In this document: in pieces, positions 8,018 to 54,587 of the stretch
How the letters are laid out: the number at the start of each line of letters is the position of its first letter
Position numbering within the stretch: the first letter of the stretch is position 1
Assembly: GCA_001661245.1 (NCBI GenBank)
Contig: KV454014.1
Span: 450,954-514,953, forward strand
Direction: 5' to 3'
Source: Pachysolen tannophilus NRRL Y-2460
Lineage: Eukaryota
DNA: 64,000 bases
The notes under the pieces: generated by a model
Told to the model about the DNA's origin: nothing
Seen by the model: the letters and a program-made list of their open reading frames with translations, nothing else
Databases searched by the model: none
Translations under genes and position numbers: made by a program

Positions 8018-9652
8018 TTATCTCCACTGATCATGAGTACTCATATTACTTGGTATTCTTAGACGTAATCCACCGGGAGTATTGTAGCCATTGCTTGGAG
8101 TAACCTGGGAAGAAGATGTACCTCTTTTCTCTCCTGAATTGGAATTGTTATTGGAATCAGCATTACCAGTCCAAGAGCTGTTTCCCAATTTATTGTTAAT
8201 ACTTAATAATCCATAATCAATCTTTCTCTTAAGATTAGTAATATCTCCCAAACTACCACCAGCATTATTACTATTATTATTATTATTATTATTATTACTA
8301 TTAGTATTATCTTGATTATTATTGTTTTCTGATTGATTAGGACCATTATTGTTATTGCTGTTCATATTTATACCATTGCGATAATGATGATGTTGATGAT
8401 CTGTTTTACTATTTGTAATGTTATGAACACAAGGAGCTAATCCTTTTGTTTGAGAAGAAGACTTATTTGGGAGATGGAAACAATCAGGACAAGGTTGTTG
8501 ATCTTCTGATTTTACCATGATATTGTGATTTTCACCATTGGAATCTGAATTCTTATTATTATTATTATTATTAGCACCACCATTGTTTCCAGTTGCAAAA
8601 TTTTCTTCATTCAGAGAAATAGGTCTTTTCTGGGTAATTTGATTTTTCAACATATTGAGGTAAGAATCATGAACACTTTGTTGTTGTTGTTGTTGCTGTT
8701 GATGTTGTTGATGTTGTTGACCAGAGTTTTGCTGAAGTTGACTATTTGGATTCATTGGTACTGGGGTACCGCTTCCACTAGTGATCCCAGTACTAATTGG
8801 TTGATTATACCTGCTCATTATAATTGGACTGTTTGTTGAAGAATCAATTGACTGTAATTGAGAAAATCTATTTGGTGAACCTGAATTACTTGAAGGGAAA
8901 ATACCTGTATTCGCTGAATAAATATATTTTTTAGGTGTTTCTATTAATCCACTTGTAGTACTTGCTAAACTGTTGAAAAACCGGTCAATACTACTTTTAA
9001 ATTTAGAACAACTTAAAGACATTGCAATAGTATAATCAACCAAGCTACTTTTAAGAGAACTGTTTATTGCTCTTATATATTGTTCTTCAACAACTTCAAC
9101 TGAAATTTCCAATTCTTCTAAATTCTCCTTTGTTAAAGTAACTACTGGAATATCTCCAACTTTACTTTCTTGATCTCTTAATGTTCTATACAACTTATTT
9201 CTTTTATTTTTCAAATCATGTGCTTTACTTTCTCTTTTTTGAACACTAACTAATTGTAATTTTATATTTTCTTGTTTATGAATTAATTCTTCTCCAGAAT
9301 CTGCTTGAATTTCCAAGAAATTACTAAATTCATTTAATAATTTTTTACTATCATCATTTGGTATAATAGTTAACCATGAGTTTAAATCTCTAATTAATTC
9401 TTGTTGTTGTCTAATAACTTTTTTCTCTGCTTTAATTAATTTTGTTATTCTATCATGAACTGTACGAGAATTTGCTTGTGCAGGTGTACCACCCATCAAC
9501 TCCAAGACTTTCCCCAAAGTTGAAGTTGTTAAAGGAGAAGACTGAGCATAAGTGTTAATTAATCGTCCAGCAACAGAAGAAGTCTCAGCTGTTCCTGTAT
9601 CTGGTGGCCCACTCCTGGAAACAAGAGAATTCGGTGAAAATATGCTTGACAT
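8018..9652 (-). CDS. Divergent Pil1/Meu14-type BAR/coiled-coil protein with N/Q-rich tail; probable Ssp1-like prospore leading-edge protein
   Basis: First ATG at 9652 (MSSIFSPN). The helical region LIKAEKKV...LVSVQKRE...RNKL...EELEISVEVVEEQY...LKSSL resembles the Pil1-type BAR pattern. It lies next to KOG1/MTM1, and SSP1 neighbours KOG1 in S. cerevisiae. Confidence 0.55.
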   Translation of the reverse strand: MSSIFSPNSLVSRSGPPDTGTAETSSVAGRLINTYAQSSPLTTSTLGKVLELMGGTPAQANSRTVHDRITKLIKAEKKVIRQQQELIRDLNSWLTIIPNDDSKKLLNEFSNFLEIQADSGEELIHKQENIKLQLVSVQKRESKAHDLKNKRNKLYRTLRDQESKVGDIPVVTLTKENLEELEISVEVVEEQYIRAINSSLKSSLVDYTIAMSLSCSKFKSSIDRFFNSLASTTSGLIETPKKYIYSANTGIFPSSNSGSPNRFSQLQSIDSSTNSPIIMSRYNQPISTGITSGSGTPVPMNPNSQLQQNSGQQHQQHQQQQQQQQSVHDSYLNMLKNQITQKRPISLNEENFATGNNGGANNNNNNKNSDSNGENHNIMVKSEDQQPCPDCFHLPNKSSSQTKGLAPCVHNITNSKTDHQHHHYRNGINMNSNNNNGPNQSENNNNQDNTNSNNNNNNNNSNNAGGSLGDITNLKRKIDYGLLSINNKLGNSSWTGNADSNNNSNSGEKRGTSSSQVTPSNGYNTPGGLRLRIPSNMSTHDQWR

Positions 9653-10212
9653 TGTTTTTTTGGTTTTTGGTAAAATATTTATAATGAAAAAAGAAAAAAA
9701 AACTAATAAGAAAAACCCAGATAAACTAAAACTTGAAAAGCAATATTTCTCAAAAAAACTTAAAATAAGAGAAACAACTTCTTTTTCCTTCAATTATGAT
9801 AAAATATCTAGCTGGTTTATTTGAACTTCACAATCGTGAAATAGACCTTGAACAAGATGAATACTTGAACTTCTCGGAAACAAGATTTGTTTTGAAATCG
9901 TGCGGCTGAAAGAACAGAATTGTACATATTAGTAACCACAAATAGGACATAAATACGTTTATACATAAACATACATACGTACATAAATATATATATATTT
10001 TTATATATATATTTATGGAGAAATATTTTTTACCTGGTTTACAAAATGCACCACTAACACTAACAGATAGACGGATTGTATAGAACTCTTTAGCTTTAAC
10101 TTAATTACGCTATTTATCTTTTAAAAAAAAATTTTATTAATATGTAATTTGCATGCATGAAAAATTTTTAAAAAAAAACTTTTCCTTTAAGTTAAAATTA
10201 ATAATTACATTA

Positions 10213-10986
10213 TTATTTCCCCTTCTTTGTTACTTCCTGATCTATATTTAAACCAGTTACATCTGCAATGAGCTTTCTTGTATCTTTTATTGTTGAATCA
10301 ATTTTTCTTTTACCTTCACCAGCAGTTTTTTCAACATCGTTAACTAAACTATCAACTTTTTCAGCAGCCAATTTTTGTCTTGAAGCAAATTCTGGTAAAT
10401 TTTTTTGTTCCAATTTCCAAACAAGTTTTTTAGAGTTTTCAAAAGTTTGAGGTAAGAAAATTGCAAATGAAAATAATCCAAAAACCAATGGGGATAAAGC
10501 TCTAATTAAGATATTTCTACGTCTAGCAACAATTGTTCCAGCCAAGGTACCGACAACAATATATATCGAGTTAGGAAATAAATCTTCTCTTCTATCATGT
10601 AATGAGGATATTGTTGAAGTAACCTCTCTTTCCTTTGTATAATATTTATCAGTTAATTCATTAAATTTATTTTCAACATTTTGATAATAATTTAAACTTT
10701 CTTGTCTAACAGATTTGAAAAAATTCTCCAATACCGATGGCGAGCGTACAGATACACCGCTAACTAGTTTATTTGGACCCAAGACTTCTAATTCAGATGC
10801 AGAAGCAGGAATAACAGTACCAGGAATAGGTGTAATTTGATCATCATCTTCATAAAAATCACGTCTTGTTGATTCATTCAATATAATGGAATTTGCATTA
10901 TTGTTCAATTGATTTAAACATAATAAAGTCGAAGAAGCTCCAACTAAAAAAGTACCAGCCTTAACCGAGCGATAAAATACCAGCAT
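10213..10986 (-). CDS. MIC26: MICOS subunit Mic26 (apolipoprotein O family)
   Basis: GPNKLVSGVSVR, YYTKEREVTSTISSLH, GTIVARRRNILIRA and PQTFEN match Mic26 as recalled. First ATG at 10986. Confidence 0.88.
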   Translation of the reverse strand: MLVFYRSVKAGTFLVGASSTLLCLNQLNNNANSIILNESTRRDFYEDDDQITPIPGTVIPASASELEVLGPNKLVSGVSVRSPSVLENFFKSVRQESLNYYQNVENKFNELTDKYYTKEREVTSTISSLHDRREDLFPNSIYIVVGTLAGTIVARRRNILIRALSPLVFGLFSFAIFLPQTFENSKKLVWKLEQKNLPEFASRQKLAAEKVDSLVNDVEKTAGEGKRKIDSTIKDTRKLIADVTGLNIDQEVTKKGK

Positions 10987-11786
10987 CTCCCTACTTTTTC
11001 TTTTTCTTTCTACCTTAGCATACAAACAAATTAAGTTTAATTGATTTAATATATATATATATATTTGTTGAAATTTTCTATTTTTTTTTGCTGTTTTTTT
11101 TTTTAAACTAATTTTAAATGGTTAATAAAATTTCCGTATATCAACACACGACCTGTTTTGATCAACACTTTTCAATTTACCATATAATTAATCAATTTAT
11201 TTATTAATTTTACTAGATAGCTAGATAGATAATAACTCAAGTGACTTTTTTACTTCCTTTTTCTTTCTATTAGGATCTTCACTTTAATTTATGTAGATTT
11301 AGATTTAAATTTTAAAAATATTTCAAAAATGACATTAAATTACAAAAATAAATTCCTTTGAATAAAAAAAGTAAAATCATCAAAAAAAGATTTTTTGAAG
11401 AAACAAACTAATATAATGAAAGCAATTATTATTTTTCAAAAGAGAAGATTTTAAAAAAAAACAGAAAATGCTATTTGTAACTATTTCAATGTATATTTTC
11501 TTTCCTTCTTTCTTTTCTTAAAAGTTTTCTGATGTTTTTATTTTTTTTTTTTTCATACTTTTTGGGTTTATATAAACTTCTTCATCTTATACCTTCTTCA
11601 TCTTTACTCCCTTCAACTGTACTTAATTTAAATGAATAATCAATCCTTTGTAAACTTTTTTTAATTTTTTCATTTTTTTTTGAGAACCAATCCTTTCTAC
11701 CATGAGAATTAACAAATTTTTTTTTTTAAAAAAGCAATCCAAAAATTTTGAATAGATATATATTCAAATTAATTTTTTTTTTCAAA

Positions 11787-29933: not shown

Positions 29934-30322
29934 CCAATTCACTAACCTTTTTCTTTTAATTAAAAAAGACAAAAACTGAAAAGATCAACTCCAATTAAAC
30001 GAAACAAAGAAGAAAGTAAAAAAAAAAAAAAAAAAAATTAATTTAGATAATACAATAAATATAATAATAATAATAATGATATTAAAATAATATTAAACAA
30101 AATTATATATATTACTAATGGAGTTTTTTTCTTTTTTTCTTTCTTTCTTTCTTTCGCAAAACTAATTCTTAATTGAGTTGAAGAAGCTCTTCACGGGAGC
30201 TTTTACCTTACTTTAACTCAATTTTTAATTAATGTGTTTTGCAGTATAAAATCAATTGTAGTCATCAAAGCGGATGCGATTCCGGAAAGTTTCGTAACAA
30301 GTTTTGGCTTGAATAAGCCAAT
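29934..30322. promoter_or_regulatory. CCAAT boxes (Hap2/3/5-type) upstream of SDH1
   Basis: CCAAT at 29934, 29991 and 30318. The motif is short, so chance occurrence is possible. Confidence 0.35.
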
Positions 30323-30676
30323 TAAATTTTAACAATTTCTAATTAAAGGCTGAAAGCAAATCGAAAGAGGAAAGTGTTGAGTGGCTAGTACCTGGTTTTT
30401 TAGTTGTCAAAAGTGGCTAGGGAGTTTTTAACTTGAGTCCTGTGAGTGAATAAGTAAGTAAGTATATTGTATTATCCTACACTACTAAGTTTTATGCCCT
30501 CGTAAACCTCGGGTTTTCGCATTTCCCTTGTTTTTTTTTTTTTTTTTTTTTGTGGAGGACTGGCCGGTAACTGAATTCACAAGGAAGTGAGTTTGAAAAA
30601 ATCTACCCGGTTTTGTACAGATCAAATAATTAAAATAAAGTATTTTATTTTTTTTAAAATAACAAATAAACGTAAA

Positions 30677-30760
30677 ACATCCTACACCATAAATCATACA
30701 CAGCACACCATTAAAATATACATCCCACACCACTTACACCACTTACACCACTTACACACC
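30677..30760. repeat. CA-rich tandem repeat (CACTTACAC)x3 and telomere-like motifs directly after the ATPase stop
   Basis: catcccacac cacttacacc acttacacca cttacacacc, plus acatcctacacc at 30677. Confidence 0.7.
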
Positions 30761-30762
30761 AG

Positions 30763-33700
30763 TTACCAATTCTTTTCAATTACTGTGGAATCAAAGATAT
30801 CCTGTTGTAAGACAACTTTTGGCGGTTTGAAAAACTTCAAGGCCAAGCTGCTCAATACAACGCTGACACTGCTCAGCGCCATTGCAGCGCTCGCCCATAC
30901 GGGATTCAACCGCGAGTTGTTATATGGATATATCACACCAGCAGCTATTGGTATACCAATCGTATTATAAAATAAAGCCCAACCAAAATTGAATTTGACT
31001 CTTTGGAATACGGTCCTCGATAACGAGAATAAAGTCAAGAGTGCAATCAAAGGGTGTTGTGGAGCTAATAAGACAAAGTCTGATGACGTCAATGCTAGAT
31101 CAGAGCCTGAGGCTAATGCTATACCAATATCTGCGACAGCCAATGCCGGAGCATCATTGATACCATCGCCGACCATTGCAACGATTGCGCGCTTAGTGGT
31201 ATGTGATGCTGATCCAGAACCAGAACTAGAACTAGAACTAGAGTTAGAGTTGTTTTTAGAAGTTGCATAAAAAGTTCTTTGAATCCATTTGATCTTGTCT
31301 GCTTTCTCCTCAGGAAGAACTTCGGCAATAACGTTATCAATTCCCAATTCTGCAGCAGCAGCTCTAGCGGTTATCTCGTTGTCTCCACTGATCATCCAGC
31401 ATGTGATTTGTTGCTTGTGTAAGTTGTCAATAACACTTTTAGCTTCAGGTCTGATTTCGTCTCTAGCAGCCATAATCATAATTGGATGATAATTCTCACT
31501 ATTGTCCCAAATTTTGGAACACTTCAATGCAATTAAAATCACACTTTTCCCCTGTTTTTTCCAACCATTTAATACTTCTTGTTGTTCTGGTAATAATGGT
31601 TTACATCCATTCTCTTTTAAGAAAAATTCATTGCCTAATAAAGCTTCTCTTGGTTCATTTTTAACCCAAAATTCATCATCATTATTTGTAAACATAAATT
31701 TACCTTTTAATCCTCTTCCAGGAACTTCTTCAACATCTGGTAATTTATTAGCATCTAATGTAAATCCATCAGAATTAGCATTGACAAAATTTTTTACCGC
31801 TGTAGCTAATGGATGTCTAGATCCTAACTCTAAATCTCTTGCAATTTGAAACCCAATTTTACGTAAAATTGATTTCTCATTTGTATCATTGCTCAAAATA
31901 CTAAAATCAGTAACTTTTGGTTCACCTCCTAATGTCAAAGTACCCGTTTTATCAAAACAAACAACATTAACTTTAGAACCTTCTTGAAATGCAGCTCCTC
32001 CTCCTCTTGCTAATATACCATTCTTAGCAGCCAACCCAGCACCAACAAATAACGCAGTAGGTGCAGCAAGACCAATACCACAAGGACATGCAACAACAAA
32101 TACAGCAATGGCAAATTCTAAAGACCATACAACCCATCCACCAACGTCAATATCTAAATAACTATCAGGTAATTTCCCTGTACATCCAAGACCTAACCAG
32201 ATTAACCAAGTTAAAATGGCACTTAAAGTGATTACTGGTACAAAATAACCAGTTAAAACATCTGCTGTTCTTTCAATAGGAGCTCTTTTCAATTGTCCAT
32301 CTCTCACTGTTGCAACAATTTGATCCAAAAAAGAAGTTCCATCTAAAGCAGAAATTTTGGCAATAATCGAGTTTGGACCTATATTTACAGTTCCTGCAAA
32401 TATTTGTTCACCTTCTGAATGTTTTACAGCAAAAGATTCACCCGTAAGTGCACTTTCATCAAATTCCGTGTTTCCTTGAACAATAATGGAATCTGCTGGT
32501 GGAGATTCTCCTACAGCGAGTCTTATATAATCACCCACTTCTAAGTAATCAATTTTAATATCTTCATCATCTCCAAATTGATAACTGGATTCATTAGCTA
32601 AATGAGAGGTTGCATCTCGTTGTTGTTCTTTCAGCGGCGAAGACAGAGATGGCAGCGATGGACGAAATTCTGAAGAAATCAGTGTTGATGATGACGACGA
32701 TAATGGGTTAACACTATCCAGCGATTCTGATGAACTTAATATATGAACTAGCTTTGCCATACTAGGTTTCAACCCACTTAAACTTACTACAGCATCTGCT
32801 GCCCTACTTTTTGAAAATGCTTCTAATAATCTTCCAATCAATAAGAAAAAAGTTAAAAATACCACTGAGTCAAAATAAGTGGTAGAATAACCAGTGCTTT
32901 GTTTTCTAGCACGAGCACTAAGTCCTAATAATGCAATACTTGCAAAATATGCAACAGAGGTTCCTAAAGACATCAACAAATTCATAGAACCAAACCTAAA
33001 TAACCTTCTTTTCCAAGGAACATGTGGTTTCCATAAACTTCTAATCTCTATCAAGGCTTTAAGATGGAAAATATCAGCAGCAAAGAAATATACTGGAGTA
33101 GCCAATATAAATAAGGCCCACGTTGAACGCGAGACATTTCCTTTCCAAATTGGTTTCATAAACCAAGCTCTTAAATGATTCTTACTAGGAATTAATGACA
33201 TAATAACAACGCCAATTATGAAAGTGGGTATTGCTACAATTGTGGCCAAAACCAACCTTCTCAAAACTTTTATTGTATCAACATGTGCCATTTTTCTCAA
33301 ATGCTCATCAAGAGCAACCAACTTAACCAACTCGACTTTGAAAACAGGCGACAACTCATTGATTTTTTTCAAAAGAGATCTAATAGTTAAATCAGGTGGT
33401 GCTGGAATGTAAGTGAATTTAACATAAGGATTACTCAAGCTTATCGGATTATTAATCACTATGGCATCACCATAAGATTTCAAAAAATCATTTATAATTT
33501 CTGGACAATGTTCACAATACATACCATCAATTTTTAAATTGACTGTTCTTGATTGAATTTGTTTAGAAGCATGACTAATCTTTACCGATTCAACAAGTTC
33601 AAATTCATAACCAATATCTTCTATTGAATCTTTTAAACGATCTAAAGTTTCTTTAGAGTCCGAATCTAAAATGAAAATACCAGTTTTCGAAACAATATTA

Positions 33701-34710
33701 ACAGCACATTCACTTACAAAGGGTAAATCTTTTACAGCAGTATTTATTGCTGAAGCACAAGCAGCACAGGTGATACCACCAATGGCAGCAGTGATTTTAT
33801 ACTTTGTTGATCTTTCAATTGGTAACAATTCAATTAAGGAACAACTGTAACCAATGTCTTTAACATTCGCAATTATATTATTGACCAATTGTTTATTTGG
33901 TAGGATAACAGTAGCCACATTCGAAACTGGAGAAACTGAATAAACTAGCTCATTATTTTCATTCATAGTTTTAACATTATGAGATTGTAAAACTTCATTA
34001 ATAGCATTTTCTACAGCATTGGAGCAAGAAACACAAGTCATTCCACCAATTACAAATGAAGCTCTATATTCCTTAGGGACAGCTACCACAACTTCTGGTT
34101 GTTCAAAATTCTCTTCATACTTCCCAGAACTGACAGGAGTTGCTTCATCATCTTGAGGTTTTTTTGCAAATAAATGTTTAAATTTTTCCTTTGTTTCAGA
34201 CTTATCTAGTTCATGTTTTTCACGACACACTGCACAATTCAGTAAATGAACATTATGTCTTTTCCTTTCTTCAATTATATATTTACTTTTCTTGAGCATA
34301 CTAATGATTGGTTCAAAAATACTACTCATGTTCTCTTTAGAATACATCTCTTCTGAGTTATTTGCCGTTATAAGTTCAGAAGAAATGATATCAAACCCAG
34401 TATCTTCTAAAAGCTCAATGATCTTTTTCTCTCTTGACTTCAATACACCTTTACCACCGACCAAGACCAAACTGTTTTCAGATAACAAGAAGGAAACAAC
34501 AGGTTTCCTTTCCAGCTCATGAGGACCACCATATCCTTCTTCAACTAATTCTGATTCCTGCTGTAGTTGGTGACGATTAAGAGAACTTGAAGAAGACCGA
34601 TCATTAGATATATACTCATTAACAATGAAAAATGATGAAATAGCCCTCCTCAAGTTTCTCGAGCACTCTTCACAATGTAAATTTCCAAGAACTATATTTA
34701 ACTGCTCCAT
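30763..34710 (-). CDS. Copper-type P1B ATPase (Ccc2/Crp1-like)
   Basis: HMA motifs HCEEC, MTCVSC, ITCAAC and MYCEHC; TGES, CPC, DKTGT, SRHP, GDGINDAP, YN and M-x-x-SS in the last TM helices. Confidence 0.93.
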   Translation of the reverse strand: MEQLNIVLGNLHCEECSRNLRRAISSFFIVNEYISNDRSSSSSLNRHQLQQESELVEEGYGGPHELERKPVVSFLLSENSLVLVGGKGVLKSREKKIIELLEDTGFDIISSELITANNSEEMYSKENMSSIFEPIISMLKKSKYIIEERKRHNVHLLNCAVCREKHELDKSETKEKFKHLFAKKPQDDEATPVSSGKYEENFEQPEVVVAVPKEYRASFVIGGMTCVSCSNAVENAINEVLQSHNVKTMNENNELVYSVSPVSNVATVILPNKQLVNNIIANVKDIGYSCSLIELLPIERSTKYKITAAIGGITCAACASAINTAVKDLPFVSECAVNIVSKTGIFILDSDSKETLDRLKDSIEDIGYEFELVESVKISHASKQIQSRTVNLKIDGMYCEHCPEIINDFLKSYGDAIVINNPISLSNPYVKFTYIPAPPDLTIRSLLKKINELSPVFKVELVKLVALDEHLRKMAHVDTIKVLRRLVLATIVAIPTFIIGVVIMSLIPSKNHLRAWFMKPIWKGNVSRSTWALFILATPVYFFAADIFHLKALIEIRSLWKPHVPWKRRLFRFGSMNLLMSLGTSVAYFASIALLGLSARARKQSTGYSTTYFDSVVFLTFFLLIGRLLEAFSKSRAADAVVSLSGLKPSMAKLVHILSSSESLDSVNPLSSSSSTLISSEFRPSLPSLSSPLKEQQRDATSHLANESSYQFGDDEDIKIDYLEVGDYIRLAVGESPPADSIIVQGNTEFDESALTGESFAVKHSEGEQIFAGTVNIGPNSIIAKISALDGTSFLDQIVATVRDGQLKRAPIERTADVLTGYFVPVITLSAILTWLIWLGLGCTGKLPDSYLDIDVGGWVVWSLEFAIAVFVVACPCGIGLAAPTALFVGAGLAAKNGILARGGGAAFQEGSKVNVVCFDKTGTLTLGGEPKVTDFSILSNDTNEKSILRKIGFQIARDLELGSRHPLATAVKNFVNANSDGFTLDANKLPDVEEVPGRGLKGKFMFTNNDDEFWVKNEPREALLGNEFFLKENGCKPLLPEQQEVLNGWKKQGKSVILIALKCSKIWDNSENYHPIMIMAARDEIRPEAKSVIDNLHKQQITCWMISGDNEITARAAAAELGIDNVIAEVLPEEKADKIKWIQRTFYATSKNNSNSSSSSSSGSGSASHTTKRAIVAMVGDGINDAPALAVADIGIALASGSDLALTSSDFVLLAPQHPLIALLTLFSLSRTVFQRVKFNFGWALFYNTIGIPIAAGVIYPYNNSRLNPVWASAAMALSSVSVVLSSLALKFFKPPKVVLQQDIFDSTVIEKNW

Positions 34711-34981
34711 AACTAGCTAATTTCAATTACAAAATTGCCTTCCATCCTTATAAAAATGGATTATTGCTAACTTTTATATATTGTAACGATGAGATCTTTT
34801 TGCCTATTGGCAAAATTGACGCATAGAAAAAAAAGAAATAAAAAAAATTTAATACCAAAAAAGAAAAAAATTATTATTATCTTAATAATCATTAATACTA
34901 ATTAATTGTCTATCAAGTTAAAAGACGATACGGGTTAAATTTCCAGTTGTCACTTTTTCGAACTGCTAGTATATTTCCAAG

Positions 34982-36235
34982 ATAGCTAACAAATCCAGAC
35001 CAAGACAGACCAGAGGTTTACGTTACAAGAAGTACGTATATGGTGTAAAGCAAAATGATATTCCAAATACTGGAGATGGTGATGGTGATGGCGATGTCGA
35101 AGAGGAAGAAGAGGAAACGGAACATGATCGGATGGCTAAAATGCTGATTGGTAATGGTGATGGTGATGGTGATAATAGTCAAGAAGTTGGGTATGGGCAA
35201 GTTTCGAAACTTCCAATAGAATTGATTTATTTAATTTTGGCAAAATATTTATCAGTTAAGTCATCATACTTATTGCTCAATAAATGGTTATTCCATTTAC
35301 TTTCTCCAATACTTTATGAGCAGCCAGTACTTTCCAGTAAAAATTTTTTCAGTTTTGTTGAGACTTTATCTTCTTCTCCAAGGAAAAAATATTATGGGTC
35401 GCTTGTCAAACATTTGGATTTAAGTACCATTATTCAATCTGGGAAAAATTCGTTTGTTTCTAGATTGTTGAGACGTTGTTCTTTAAACTTGATTAGTTTC
35501 ATAGCACCTCAAACGAGCTTTGGCTATGCACCATTAGTTAGTTTAAGGGCATGCCATAGTTTAAAAGTGTTGGATTTAAGATTGGTTTCAGAAACTGTTA
35601 ATTTAACAGAATTATTTCATAGTATGAAAAATTGCAAAAATTTGGAACAATTATCATTTCCTAGATCATCAGTGGAATGTAAAGACTTTGAAAAAATTGC
35701 ATGGCCTGAAAATTTATCATATTTGCGTTTATCTGGTGGAATAACGAATGAATTTTTAGATTCTGTAAAATTCCCTAAAACAATAAGAACTTTAGAATTT
35801 GCTCATTGTCCATATTTAAACGCAAAAAGTATTTATAAAGTGTTAATGGCATTGGGGAAAAATTTGAAAAGTTTATCGATTCATTATCCTATGCCCAATT
35901 TAGATCAAGATTCCATGAATATGGTGCTAATGTATTGTCGAAACTTAAAGTTCTTGTATATAACCGTTGACTACATTAGCAGTGGATTATTATCTGATTT
36001 CTTGGATGAAGATCATAGTTTAGAAACGTTATGGATTGATTCAAGTGGAACGTTGGGTCAATCTTTTAAATTACATCCTGATGATTTAACTATTGCTATA
36101 AGCGAATACAGATTGCCGAGATTGCGTACAGTCAGGATCAATTATAGGCTCGGGTGGGATACAGCAAGCTCTGATGTCCTGGATTTGGTTGGAATATTAG
36201 AAGATCAAGGTGGTAGCTTATATGTAGTTAGATAA
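34982..36235 (+). CDS. PFU1: F-box/LRR protein, YDR306C (Pfu1) family; probable start at ATA 34982, first in-frame ATG at 35132
   Basis: LPIEL F-box, LSTIIQSGKNSFVSRLLRRC, FIAPQTSFGYAPL, LSFPRSS, LSGGITNEF, HPDDLTIAI and LEDQGGSLY. The frame is open back to 34970, and from 34982 reads (I)ANKSRPRQTRGLRYKKYV, matching the recalled YDR306C N-terminus. Neighbours PMT and SRB7, like YDR306C-308C. Confidence 0.85.
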   Translation: MANKSRPRQTRGLRYKKYVYGVKQNDIPNTGDGDGDGDVEEEEEETEHDRMAKMLIGNGDGDGDNSQEVGYGQVSKLPIELIYLILAKYLSVKSSYLLLNKWLFHLLSPILYEQPVLSSKNFFSFVETLSSSPRKKYYGSLVKHLDLSTIIQSGKNSFVSRLLRRCSLNLISFIAPQTSFGYAPLVSLRACHSLKVLDLRLVSETVNLTELFHSMKNCKNLEQLSFPRSSVECKDFEKIAWPENLSYLRLSGGITNEFLDSVKFPKTIRTLEFAHCPYLNAKSIYKVLMALGKNLKSLSIHYPMPNLDQDSMNMVLMYCRNLKFLYITVDYISSGLLSDFLDEDHSLETLWIDSSGTLGQSFKLHPDDLTIAISEYRLPRLRTVRINYRLGWDTASSDVLDLVGILEDQGGSLYVVR

Positions 36236-36265
36236 CTGTAACAAACAGGTCATCATCTATTCAAC

Positions 36266-36303
<38 letters not shown>

Positions 36304-36745
36304 TACATTATTCTTTAATTTATCGTTATTACTTTTATTTTTTTTTTCATTCTTCTTCTGCTATACCATTGCTTTATATCTACTATAGAGCTTCAACAGT
36401 AGACTTTCTTCTGCTCATCCTTTGGTTTCTTACTACGGCTATTAGAGATCAAATTCTCATCTTCAACTTTTTGTTGTCTTTTTGATTTTTTGATTTTTTA
36501 ATTTTCCAAAGATACCTTTTATATTTAACGTGTATAAATTATTTAAAGTGTTAAATCATCATATATACTCAGGTAGCAGCAGGTAAAAAAAAAGAAACGA
36601 AACGAAAACCTCAAGGAGAGTAGGAGCTGAATATTGAAGTGTCATTCATTGGGATAAGTTAAGATAAGTTTTTTCCAATTTGGTTTAATCTAGAGTTGCA
36701 ATTTTCTATTTTGAAAAATATTTGAAACATCATATATTTGGAAAC

Positions 36746-38992
36746 ATGAAGCTGCGCCAACTAGAAAAGGAATCAAGTGATAATGATCTTGAAAAATACT
36801 TGACGACGTATGAATCTGGTACAAGAAGAGATTTTTATAAATCAACTCCAGATTCTGAGTTATTCCATAATCTAACTAAGTTCAATTCTAAACTTGAAGT
36901 GGTTGGCTATACGGTTTTAGCATTATTTGCGATAGTTATAAGGCTTTATAATATTTCAGAACCAGATTCAGTTGTATTTGATGAGGTTCATTTTGGTGGT
37001 TATGCTAGGAAATATCTTAAGGGGATTTACTTTGTTGATGTTCATCCACCATTGGTTAAGTTAATTTATGCCATGTTCTTGAAATTGGGGAAATTTAGAG
37101 GTGATTTTGAATTTAGTAATATTGGTGATAGTTATGTAACTAGTGAATATGAGGTTCCTTATATACCAATGAGATTATTCTCTGCATTTTGTGGTATTTG
37201 TACAGTATTACTTACTTATAGAATATTGAAAGTTTCAGGTTGTAAACCTATTATTTGTTGGTTGGGATCATTTTTGTGTTGTATTGAGAATTCATTAATA
37301 ACTCAATCAAGATTAATCTTGTTAGATTCTCCGTTAATATTTTTCATTACTTTAAGTATTTTCAGTTTCAAGATGTTTCAAATATCAGTACCATTTTCTA
37401 AAAATTGGTTTAGATACTTGACTATTTTGGGGTTTGCATTAGGATTAACAATTAGTTCCAAATGGGTCGGATTTTTCACTTATGCTTACATTTTATTATT
37501 AGTGCTAAAACAGCTATGGTTTATTATTGGAGATTTGAGTATTTCAAACAAAATACTAGTAAAACATATTTCATCAAGAATTTATTTTTTGGTCATAACA
37601 CCATTAGTTTTTTACCTTGGATTTTTCTCAATTCATTTCATGCTTTTAACAAAAGTAAGTGGTGATTCATCACTTATGTCTCCCGCTTTTCAAAATGGGT
37701 TTGAAAATTCCATTGTGCATGACTATTATGCTGATGTAATTCATGGTTCTACAATCACTATAAAACATGTTGGAACAGGAGGTTATTTACATTCTCATAG
37801 TCTGGTATATCCAGGTTCGGGACAACAACAAGTTACTCTGTACTCTTTCCAAGATGTTAACAATGACTGGGTGATAGAAAGAGTAAATAAATCTATAATT
37901 CCATCGAAAATTTTACAAAAACATGATGTTGTTAAAGATAGAGCAAAAGTAAAACTTTTCCATGTAAAAGAACAAAAATACTTGAGAGTAAATGATGCAA
38001 GACCACCAGTTAGTGATCAAGAATATAATAATGAGGTTACCTTATTTGGTGATGCCAATTATACTGCAGCAGATCAAAATGAGGTATATGAGATTAAAAT
38101 AATTAAAGATAGATCAAAATTAAACGATGATGCTCAAAAAAGGTTAAAAGCAGTTGATACTGTTTTCCAAATTTACCACAAAGGAACTGGATGCACCTTA
38201 ATATCGCATAATGTTAAACTCCCTGATTGGGGATTTAATCAAAATGAAGTAATTTGTATTGAAAAACCAACATTAGAAAACACATTATGGTACATCGAAG
38301 GAAATACAAATCCATTATTTGATGAAGATCCAGTAAAATTTAAGAAAATTGATTTCAAGAATTTAAATTTTTTGGAAAAATTTGTTGAAGTTCATAAAAT
38401 CATGTGGAGAGTCAATAAAAGTTTAACTCAGAAACATAATTTTGAAAGTAAACCTGAATCATGGCCTTTTTTATCAAGAGGAGTTAGTTATTGGACTGAA
38501 GATCATAGAAATATATATTTCCTTGGTAATTACGTAATATATTGGTTGACTTCTACATTCCTTATTGCTTATGTGATATTCAAAGTTTCAACAGCATTGA
38601 ATGTGTTAAGACCAAGTTATTTTGTTAATTTATCAAAAATTACAGTTGTTCCAGCTACTGTATTATACGATTCTAATTGTCTTGAATATTTAATTGGTTG
38701 GTTTTTCCATTACTATCCATCATTTTTAATGAAAAGACAAATGTTCTTACATCATTATTTACCTTCTTTATATTTCAGTATATTATTGTTAGCCCAATCT
38801 TTACAATTCATTTATTCTAAAAATCGTATGATTGGGTACTTTTTAATTTTTTCTATTGGAATTACCAGTTTGTACTTTGGATTTATAAAATATGCTCCAT
38901 TAATTTATGCTTTGAATTGGAATTATCAAGATTGTATTGATTCCAAATTACTCAATACTTGGGACATTAACTGTGAAGCATATTTACATTAA
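36746..38992 (+). CDS. Dolichyl-phosphate-mannose:protein O-mannosyltransferase (PMT1-subfamily-like, at PMT7-syntenic position)
   Basis: VVFDEVHFG, DVHPPL, SRLILLDS, MIR domains (YLHSH, QQQVT, LPDWGFNQNEV) and RQMFLHHYLP. First ATG at 36746. Confidence 0.92.
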   Translation: MKLRQLEKESSDNDLEKYLTTYESGTRRDFYKSTPDSELFHNLTKFNSKLEVVGYTVLALFAIVIRLYNISEPDSVVFDEVHFGGYARKYLKGIYFVDVHPPLVKLIYAMFLKLGKFRGDFEFSNIGDSYVTSEYEVPYIPMRLFSAFCGICTVLLTYRILKVSGCKPIICWLGSFLCCIENSLITQSRLILLDSPLIFFITLSIFSFKMFQISVPFSKNWFRYLTILGFALGLTISSKWVGFFTYAYILLLVLKQLWFIIGDLSISNKILVKHISSRIYFLVITPLVFYLGFFSIHFMLLTKVSGDSSLMSPAFQNGFENSIVHDYYADVIHGSTITIKHVGTGGYLHSHSLVYPGSGQQQVTLYSFQDVNNDWVIERVNKSIIPSKILQKHDVVKDRAKVKLFHVKEQKYLRVNDARPPVSDQEYNNEVTLFGDANYTAADQNEVYEIKIIKDRSKLNDDAQKRLKAVDTVFQIYHKGTGCTLISHNVKLPDWGFNQNEVICIEKPTLENTLWYIEGNTNPLFDEDPVKFKKIDFKNLNFLEKFVEVHKIMWRVNKSLTQKHNFESKPESWPFLSRGVSYWTEDHRNIYFLGNYVIYWLTSTFLIAYVIFKVSTALNVLRPSYFVNLSKITVVPATVLYDSNCLEYLIGWFFHYYPSFLMKRQMFLHHYLPSLYFSILLLAQSLQFIYSKNRMIGYFLIFSIGITSLYFGFIKYAPLIYALNWNYQDCIDSKLLNTWDINCEAYLH

Positions 38993-52511: not shown

Positions 52512-54587
52512 ATGTCCACGAGCTCTATTAAAACTTATACTAAGAAGGCTCATAAGAAATCAAGAAATGGTTGTTTGACTTGTAGATCTAGGAAAATCAA
52601 GGTGAGTACATATAAATTAATATATATATTTATATTTATATACATATATATATATAAATATATATATAAAAAGAGAAAAATTGTGTAATTAAACTCCGAA
52701 ATGCAAAAGAAGTTTCCCATTTCTCAAGAAGAAATGATACTAATTATCAATATGAATTTTTTTATTTTTTTTTTTCATTTTTAGTGCGATGAAACTCATC
52801 CGTCTTGTAAGAATTGTACAAGGAAGAACCTATCTTGTCTTTATGGTGAAAAATTTATTCCAAAAACCGGTACTCTGCTTGCTAGGATTAAAAAATCAAA
52901 AAAATATTGTAAAGACTCCAATTCTGATGAGTTAGTTCATAATGATTTTCCCAATGGTTCACAATTGTTATCTCCTTCAGATATATTGGATGACTTACCA
53001 ATGAATAATTTTCCAGGAGAAGTTTCATCATCAACGGGTTTGGGAAATTCAAGTTTAGGAAATCCAAGTTTGGGAAATCCCAATGCTTCCTTTGAATTTG
53101 ATGATTTTTTGGAGTATACGTCTTTGTCTGAACTATTTGCCACTTCGAATCAATTGAATAATGCTTGTGATTCTTATGATCCAAATTTTAATATACCATC
53201 GTTGCTAAATAGTTCTATGAATATGGCTTATTTAGATTACACTTCAAATTCTAACACATGTTCTCCTCTGTCACCATTGACGTCGTCGGAGTTAGTATTG
53301 AACGAGTCTGATTATCAAAAACAAAAGTTTGATTGTCCGCGAGATGAAGCTGTTGCTGTTTTCAAAGCTTTAGATGTGATGCTGTCTTTGGGTGGCGAAT
53401 CTACATCGGTTCCTGTTGCCACTGGATCAGAAACAGGGGTTTCATCAATTTCAGATTTTAAATTAGAATACAATTCAATTGATAGAAATTTTATATCAGA
53501 TAACTGCAAGCAAGCAATGACTTTAAGTAAATCTTATTTATCAGATTCTACTATAACTATTAAATTGATGCATTATTTTTCCAAAATTTACTACAAGAAA
53601 TTACCAACATATTCTTCTAAACAAAAATCATGGTTTTCATTATTCAGTTATTTTGGATTAGAATATGATCATGTACTTCATATGCTTTTGGCAGTGAGCG
53701 TGTTAGATTTATATAATCTAAAAATTTACACACATAAGGTTTCTAAAGATGATTTACTAAATTTAACAAATGATGAAGATTATTTGAAAATTGCTCAACA
53801 ACATTCATCTGAATCATTACGGAAACTTCAAAATAATCTTTGTAAAACAGATGATGATATGTCTAAAAAAAGTTCCACTGCTGTAGTGGATTTAGCAACA
53901 TCATTACTGAATCTTTTATATATTTTTTTAAATCCTTTGCATAAACTTGGTGATTCAATTTTTTACAACATGTCAAAACTAATACGAGAAATTTTTATGA
54001 AAAATTCATTTGTCATTAGTACCAAAAAATTTGAATATCAATCATTCAATAATGCAACAGTCGATTGGTATTCAAGAAATATAGGGTTAACAAATTTATT
54101 TGTTAAATCTAAAAGTGAAGTTCAAATGAGTTTTCTTCCAGTTTACTTATTTGGATTAGTAAATTTGACAACATTTAACATATACGATTCTTATGATGAT
54201 AATGAAACTCAATCTAAACTTATTTCAGATGCTCAACAGAAATCGATATATATGCTTTTCGCAGAATTAATCAATTTGGGCCGCAAAATAGACTTCATTG
54301 AAGAAAATGAACCAGATCTAATAAGAGTATTACTACGTTGGCCTGTCTCTATACCATGTTCCTTTATAGAATCTCTAGCTCAAAGAAACCCAATATCATT
54401 GATAATAGTGGCACACTATATCATGTTTTTATGTTCAAATTATATATGCCTGGTTTCTAATGGTCAATTCAAAGAAGACTACTTTGATGAAATTTTTAAA
54501 AACGAAATATCCTATATCGACGATTTATTGGATTATAAATGGAAACCTTGGATCGATGTTCCAAAAAGAGTAGTCGGATTGTTATAA
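52512..54587 (+). CDS. Zn(II)2Cys6 transcription factor (Upc2/Ecm22-like architecture), spliced
   Basis: Exon 1 52512-52601 (...HKKSRNGCLTCRSRKIK). Intron 52602-52784: GTGAGT...TACTAAT...TAG. Exon 2 52785-54587 (CDETHPSCKNCTRKNLSC...), in frame with the 540-aa ORF; 630 aa. Confidence 0.9.

Follow-up and report, generated by a model that had tools for sequence, protein, structure and literature searches.

The window considered here, a stretch of 64,000 nucleotides (nt) from the budding yeast Pachysolen tannophilus NRRL Y-2460 (assembly GCA_001661245.1, contig KV454014.1, positions 450,954 to 514,953 of the forward strand), harbours an orthologue of the F-box gene PFU1/YDR306C whose reading frame carries an ATA codon at the position of the family's initiator methionine. 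From the sequence and its comparison with related genes, we put the probability that this orthologue starts at an obligate, conserved AUA/AUU near-cognate codon instead of an AUG at roughly 80%. The features of the locus are compiled in Table 1.

Around the codon in question, the window reads TAG TAT ATT TCC AAG ATA GCT AAC AAA, and the frame then stays open to its stop. The codons following the ATA, GCT AAC AAA TCC AGA CCA, are read as (I)ANKSRPRQTRGLRYKKYVYG, while the first in-frame ATG is codon 51, 50 codons past the ATA. The intervening segment holds seven out-of-frame ATGs (35040, 35055, 35076, 35082, 35088, 35094, and 35124), all in frame +1. The one at 35040 opens a two-codon open reading frame (ORF), MV, and the ORFs of the remaining six share the same TGA, overlapping both in-frame ATGs, 35132 and 35141. 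This arrangement agrees in every coordinate with the original prediction, made from the letters of the stretch, which had placed the TAG at 34967, the ATA 50 codons before ATG 35132 with A at −3 and G at +4, and the seven out-of-frame ATGs between 35040 and 35124. The overlap with 35132 and the stop at 35147 that it described for the ORF from 35055 proved common to six of the seven ORFs. Before the first in-frame ATG, 54 codons are open, the second longest stretch of this kind among the 23 ORFs of at least 200 amino acids (aa) in the window (median 8), and these codons encode the conserved N-terminal motif of the family. Upstream of the leader, the nearest ATG lies at 34789; by our own reading of the sequence it opens a short A-rich ORF that closes before the ATA. 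A TATAAAA is found at about 34749, upstream of the PFU1 orthologue.

Table 1. Coordinates, in the window, of the PFU1/YDR306C orthologue and the elements around its proposed start.
Feature	Position	Strand	Remark
In-frame TAG	34967..34969	+	Five codons upstream of the ATA; rules out an earlier in-frame ATG start
ATA at the family's initiator Met position, proposed near-cognate start	34982..34984	+	Contigs of four runs from two samples
Start context AAG ATA G (A −3, A −2, G −1, G +4)	34979..34985	+	Read from the sequence
PFU1/YDR306C orthologue, full coding sequence	34982..36235	+	417 codons from the ATA; stop 36233-36235
N-terminal basic motif ANKSRPRQTRGLRYKKYVYGVKQND, conserved	34985..35059	+	Upstream of all in-frame ATGs
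Seven out-of-frame (+1) ATGs with short ORFs	35040..35147	+	ORF ends 35046-48 and 35145-47
In-frame ATGs, first 35132 and second 35141	35132..35143	+	Stored annotation P0001 begins at 35141
F-box-like core LPIELIYLIL, residues 77-86	35210..35239	+	Motif position; downstream of Met51
Presumed 5' leader, ATG-free, A/T-rich, 190 nt	34792..34981	+	A82 C24 G22 T62

Judged by its sequence, the window gene is a PFU1/YDR306C-type F-box/leucine-rich-repeat orthologue. A search of a protein collection returned 259 relatives, of which the best 120 represent the PFU1/YDR306C family of budding yeasts. S. cerevisiae YDR306C (P0061) matches over 78% of the query at 53% identity (E-value 1.6e-101), and the orthologues of Wickerhamomyces, Ogataea, Lachancea, and Kluyveromyces reach E-values of 1e-105 to 1e-116; identity to 15 aligned homologues ranges from 44 to 67%. 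The family shares the motif M-A-N-K-(R/S)-R-P-K-K...Y-(R/K)-(R/K)-Y, which the window protein, (I)ANKSRPRQTRGLRYKKYVYG, fits in all residues except the first. The N-terminus of P0061 is MANKSRPKKIKAPYRKYVAG, bearing out the start of S. cerevisiae YDR306C as given in the original prediction, and Ogataea angusta P0027 begins with MANKSRPKKTRGQLYKKYVYGVKENG, which is nearly identical to (I)ANKSRPRQTRGLRYKKYVYGVKQND of the window. The stored gene model, P0001, is 364 aa long; it takes ATG 35141 as its start and omits 53 N-terminal codons. As it reads two CTG codons as Ala (MAIGNG.., ..SSDVADLV), the code used for the genome annotation was CUG-Ala (NCBI table 26). A tRNA scan of the 64-kb window yielded no genes.

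At the domain level, the Pfam F-box models do not match the window protein, and the F-box-like model PF12937 matches three of 16 aligned family members weakly (best E-value 0.0024), with the LPxEI core located at window residue 77. A Pfam TrAA12 match on the window protein was sub-threshold and judged spurious. Searched against the Protein Data Bank, a profile of the 16 members detects FBXL2 (E-value 3.3e-06) and SKP2 (E-value 9.4e-06) in the leucine-rich-repeat part. Moreover, S. cerevisiae Pfu1 is named among the confirmed substrate receptors of SCF (Skp1-cullin-F-box) complexes in a review (PMC10216172). The segment WPxSxFEK(I/V)DVL, present between the N-terminal motif and the F-box in most homologues of the window protein's clade, is absent from the window protein itself, which has a short Asp-Gly/Glu-rich linker in its place (alignment columns about 150-200).

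The ATA at 34982 is not an assembly error. Contigs from four public genomic runs were aligned to positions 33500-37500; three of the runs (X1, X2, and X4) stem from one sample, and X5 belongs to a second sample and study that may be the source of the window. In all four, a contig spans 33500-36261 at a word depth of 71-191 with no other letter. The only difference, present in all four runs, is one extra A behind 34863, in a poly-A homopolymer within the presumed PFU1 leader or shared promoter. The opposite-strand neighbour, copper-ATPase-like by our reading of its CxxC and DKTGT motifs, starts at 34710, so the intergenic region measures just 271 nt.

The same codon departs from ATG in orthologues from other organisms. 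When metagenome contigs were scanned with the alignment of the family, 12 loci emerged. The N-terminal motif is present in 10 of them; L011 and L012 were negative in the motif scan, with matches beginning at query residue 110, and entered neither the start-codon table nor the trees. Of the 10 loci with the motif, five have ATA as the homologous codon (L003, L004, L006, L007, and L008), one has ATT (L009), and four have ATG (L001, L002, L005, and L010), and every one of the 10 has an intact ORF of 427-485 codons counted from this codon. Whether the codon is recurrently near-cognate had been asked in the original prediction; among these loci it is, as ATA or ATT. In all seven non-ATG loci, the window included, an in-frame ATG is absent between the upstream stop and the homologous codon. 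The distance from this stop to the codon is three codons in L004, five in the window, and between 10 and 51 codons elsewhere. L004 reads TGA TCC AAA ATA, leaving the ATA as the sole near-cognate codon on offer.

Ile occupies the position of the initiator Met in seven further proteins (P0062, P0097, P0104, P0105, P0121, P0123, and P0125). Behind a fortuitous upstream extension, the Ile stands in ..TPKIANKRRPKK of Kuraishia capsulata P0062, in ..SKIANK of P0097 and P0104, and in ..SIIANK of P0105. A search centred on L007 contributed P0121 (..STIANK), P0123 (MPSIANK), and P0125 (MATFPSKIANK), and in this search Metschnikowia bicuspidata keeps Met at the homologous position. Babjeviella P0018 (..FHSNKQRPKK) has His there. 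The annotated Metschnikowia pulcherrima protein P0124 has an odd N-terminus, MQSARRPKK. In the nearly identical locus L009, the frame runs ..HKIANKRRPKK; its codon for the Met position is ATT, 228 nt free of ATG precede it, and the annotated N-terminus of P0124 looks like a gene-model artefact in which the AG of a Lys codon was taken as an acceptor.

The distribution of the two states was followed in two trees, from both of which P0001 was dropped as a duplicate. The 10 loci, the window, and 119 listed matches make up the 130 rows of the FastTree phylogeny. Within it, a clade of 45 rows, including Kuraishia, Ogataea, Candida boidinii, Babjeviella, Yamadazyma, Scheffersomyces, Candida maltosa, and others, contains 11 rows with Ile, seven with Met, one with His, and 26 without the N-terminus. 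Among the remaining 85 rows (Wickerhamomyces and Saccharomycetaceae), 81 have Met, none has Ile, and four lack the N-terminus. An IQ-TREE phylogeny of 62 rows, calculated with the N-terminal motif excluded, requires at least eight changes between Met and Ile, of which five to six are forced by starred branches; its four outgroup rows do not fall on one side of a branch. From these minimum counts it follows that the start toggled repeatedly between ATG and ATA/ATT while the gene stayed intact. The non-ATG state is limited to one large clade, with at least five switches between it and ATG, and is the prevailing state of the gene in this clade of Pichiaceae-type, CUG-Ala, and CUG-Ser1-type yeasts.

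Several annotated proteins of the clade, from Candida theae, Yamadazyma tenuis, and Scheffersomyces, start at internal Mets, and the Kuraishia capsulata and Metschnikowia pulcherrima models have odd N-termini. Three of the metagenome loci connect such predictions to a start codon: over the tree columns, L003 (ATA) has the same sequence as P0107, which starts at an internal Met, the sister of L004 (ATA) is the shortened Candida theae protein, and L009 (ATT) differs little from the protein of M. pulcherrima. The shortened predictions correspond to non-ATG genes.

Constraint at the protein level starts exactly at the ATA/ATT codon. When non-ATG loci are compared pairwise, the codons from the ATA/ATT up to the first in-frame ATG differ at nonsynonymous sites with a pN of 0.235-0.268 and at synonymous sites with a pS of 0.81-0.94, that is, to saturation. 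For the rest of the ORF in the same pairs pN amounts to 0.212-0.263, so that it is no more constrained, while identity over the 90 nt ahead of the codon is 24-31%, the level expected at random. Because the constraint has outlasted the saturation of silent sites, both an untranslated leader and a recent loss of the start are argued against. The original prediction had also considered a start-loss mutation; a recent one is unlikely since the non-ATG state is common to a deep clade.

The nucleotides in front of the codon differ between the two states as well. In the non-ATG loci, the triplets at −3 to −1 are AAA, AAA, ACA, GAA, AAA, AAG (before ATT), and AAG (window); the ATG loci have CCT, GTA, TTC, and AGT. 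Thus, five of the seven non-ATG loci present an AAR context (R, A or G), and all seven have a purine at −3 and a G at +4. When extended proteins are included through the residue that precedes their Ile or Met, the AAR context occurs in 8/11 non-ATG versus 0/7 ATG cases (Fisher p = 0.004) and A at −3 in 10/11 versus 1/7 (p = 0.0025), p-values that overstate the evidence because the cases are related and the rows not phylogenetically independent. The preferred context of non-AUG starts in yeast is given as A−3 A−2 (A/G)−1, with −3 carrying the most weight (PMC3082883), and the AAG of the window fits it. The recurrence of ATA/ATT without an upstream in-frame ATG, the favourable context, and the boundary of constraint at the codon together support the near-cognate start proposed in the original prediction.

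A number of observations weigh against such a start. P0123 and P0125 have a close upstream in-frame Met that could serve as their start, and the nearest relative of the window protein, P0002 (66-67% identical), is without its N-terminus in the database. Near-cognate codons reach 1-7% of AUG in a yeast reporter, AUA being a weak one (PMC3082883). A stabilising hairpin past the start was not found in the segments +4..+60 and +10..+50 of 11 loci (z −2.05 to +1.85), and in downstream folding ATG and non-ATG loci are alike. Furthermore, the first internal Met stands just before the F-box-like LPxEI in the window and in every other non-ATG locus except L008 (five of six), and it is conceivable that a shorter F-box protein, perhaps a second isoform, is made from an internal AUG. 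Finally, 279 nt upstream in L004, an ATG with 7 nt behind it precedes GTGAGT, in a phase compatible with a junction at the ATAG.

We regard it as unlikely that the ATA is unused and that the locus either yields a shortened F-box protein from ATG 35132 or 35141 or is a decaying gene. A product started at 35132 would keep the F-box, because the F-box-like core lies downstream of Met51; our argument that the first downstream in-frame ATG removes the F-box was accordingly dropped, as this Met precedes the motif in five of six other loci. The stored annotation begins at 35141, and PFU1 appears to be non-essential: a S. cerevisiae YDR306C deletion mutant is part of the data set of PMC8287957, and CDC4 is the sole essential receptor in the list of the review that includes Pfu1 (PMC10216172). 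However, the 50 codons upstream of 35132 are open and encode the conserved motif, and in pairs of non-ATG loci this stretch is constrained like the rest of the gene even though synonymous sites are saturated, which marks the state as old and the stretch as translated. Moreover, seven out-of-frame AUGs, six of them with ORFs overlapping 35132, separate the ATA from this ATG, and across the non-ATG loci an internal AUG is reachable only past 4-17 such AUGs. L008 has no in-frame Met before residue 275, where the first one follows the F-box-like motif. Still less probable is initiation at another nearby non-AUG codon, with a few extra residues and the ATA as a plain Ile codon. ATT 34973 is in frame and near-cognate, and several loci offer 10-51 open codons upstream, but this ATT has a T at −3, L004 has just TCC and AAA between its stop and the ATA, and conservation sets in at ATA/ATT after 90 nt of random identity.

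A normal AUG could also be supplied by a tiny upstream exon, such as the ATGG spliced to the TAG at 34983-34985 that the original prediction had raised, and we rate this as improbable as a neighbouring non-AUG codon. In its favour, the window and all but one of the six other non-ATG loci read ATAG at the junction, the window has a TACTAAT 86 nt before its ATA, and a missing N-terminus, as seen in 26 of the 45 clade rows, can result from micro-exons too. The signal of L004 described above is confined to one of seven loci, and a branch point was not found there. For the window, every ATG in 30000-34981 with a GT within 60 nt was listed, and in the 5 kb upstream none precedes, in a usable phase, a canonical 5' splice site (GT[AG]NG-type). 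The only ATGG followed by a GT (GTTAAC), at 32703, was rejected, being 2.3 kb upstream and antisense inside the neighbouring ORF, and the intergenic ATGs at 34756 and 34789 lack a usable GT before a stop. L007 shows neither a 5' splice-site-like nor a branch-point-like motif in 600 nt upstream, L009 neither an ATG nor a 5' splice-site-like motif in 228 nt upstream, and the splice-like motifs in L003, L006, and L008 are without a preceding ATG; none is common to the six other non-ATG loci. In L009, the ATT G leaves no AG at the junction at all. In addition, with a YAG acceptor Leu, Val, Thr, Pro, Ala, and Ser could be expected here besides Ile, but Ile accounts for 14 of the 15 non-Met cases. 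Splice signals of this organism are recognisable, since a true intron of the window, 52603-52784, displays clear GTGAGT, TACTAAT, a T-run, and TTTTTAG. Splice signals thus lend the ATGG micro-exon of the window no support. That a sequencing or assembly error hides a G at 34984, a further option of the original prediction, is practically negligible. The contigs of all four runs from two samples agree with the ATA and show no base difference over 33500-36261, and six independent loci of other organisms exhibit the same non-ATG state.

The intron used as the positive control splits the zinc cluster of a Zn2Cys6-type gene (52513-54587, +), with exon 1 ending in ..NGCLTCRSRKIK and exon 2 beginning with CDETHPSCKNCTRKNLSC..; the ORF from its first ATG, 53001, misses the N-terminal part. 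Two other ORFs of the window (9652, 10986) with many open codons before their first ATG, 8018-9793 (−, 47 codons) and 10213-11121 (−, 45 codons), were rejected as further candidates, as these extensions are of low complexity and bear no sign of coding. The latter ORF encodes an ApoO/MICOS-type protein, with the Pfam domain well inside the ATG-started part.

Near-cognate initiation at the AUA could proceed as follows. A scanning 40S subunit would pass the AUG-free, A-rich leader and reach the AUA in the context AAG AUA G, where Met-tRNAi would pair with it in a minority of passes. The product would begin with Met-Ala-Asn-Lys, as in the AUG-started orthologues. Ribosomes passing the AUA would mostly be lost on the seven out-of-frame AUGs, and low output would be the likely result. 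Initiation at the AUA, its low efficiency, and any regulatory purpose are what we infer from this arrangement. Such a weak start may plausibly keep the output of an SCF adaptor low and sensitive to stringency, the limiting effect already suggested in the original prediction. That the codon changed at its third position, to ATA and ATT, and not to CTG, TTG, ACG, or GTG may reflect a G-to-A mutation bias.

Eukaryotic main ORFs that rely solely on a non-AUG start are rare, and to our knowledge almost none has come from budding yeasts. Animal EIF4G2/DAP5 (GUG) and TEAD1 (AUU) possess main ORFs with an exclusive, conserved non-AUG start. They differ from PFU1 in kingdom, in codon, and in that their state is fixed, whereas PFU1 toggles with AUG at least five times in its clade. 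Human FNDC5 has ATA where other mammals have ATG, the gene being otherwise intact; this is a change in a single species with a disputed consequence, whereas the PFU1 state is found in many species, with constraint downstream. S. cerevisiae ALA1 uses an upstream near-cognate start (ACG). S. cerevisiae GRS1 (UUG) resembles the window gene in its near-cognate start and AAR context (PMC3082883). In contrast to PFU1, however, the starts of GRS1 and ALA1 add an N-terminal extension, giving a mitochondrial isoform beside the AUG form; here, the near-cognate codon replaces the AUG at the homologous position, and the full protein has no AUG form. Closest in codon and context is nAuORF2 of S. cerevisiae GCN4, with an AUA in A−3 A−2 A−1, which is translated in vivo and loses translation when the AUA is changed to AAA (PMC3082883). 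It is a short upstream ORF with no role detected, whereas here the AUA would start the sole full-length, conserved product. S. cerevisiae PFU1 itself encodes the orthologous protein with the same N-terminal motif but starts at ATG; L002, which does not differ from it over the tree columns, has GTA ATG GCA. A literature search, with subscription journals outside its scope, returned, among the papers listed, nothing on the start codon of PFU1/YDR306C. Probably, the finding is a new and phylogenetically deep example of a main ORF with a near-cognate start, the kind itself being already known.

For the annotation of this clade, the models without the conserved N-terminus (26 of the 45 listed rows), those with odd N-termini, and P0001 of the window would need correcting. 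A tentative and rather doubtful extension of near-cognate initiation is that the PFU1 start acts as a rheostat, both in evolution and in physiology, with output tied to start-codon stringency, that is, to the eIF1/eIF5 balance, stress, or temperature. On this reading, AUA/AUU would have been kept as the sole start in an optimised AAR context in three yeast orders, for long enough that synonymous sites became saturated, with at least five flips to or from AUG. If it were true, Pfu1 would be a natural, conserved sensor gene for initiation fidelity. A conserved gene that combines a context signature with repeated AUG/AUA switching would offer a natural allele series for the origin, persistence, and tuning of near-cognate starts.

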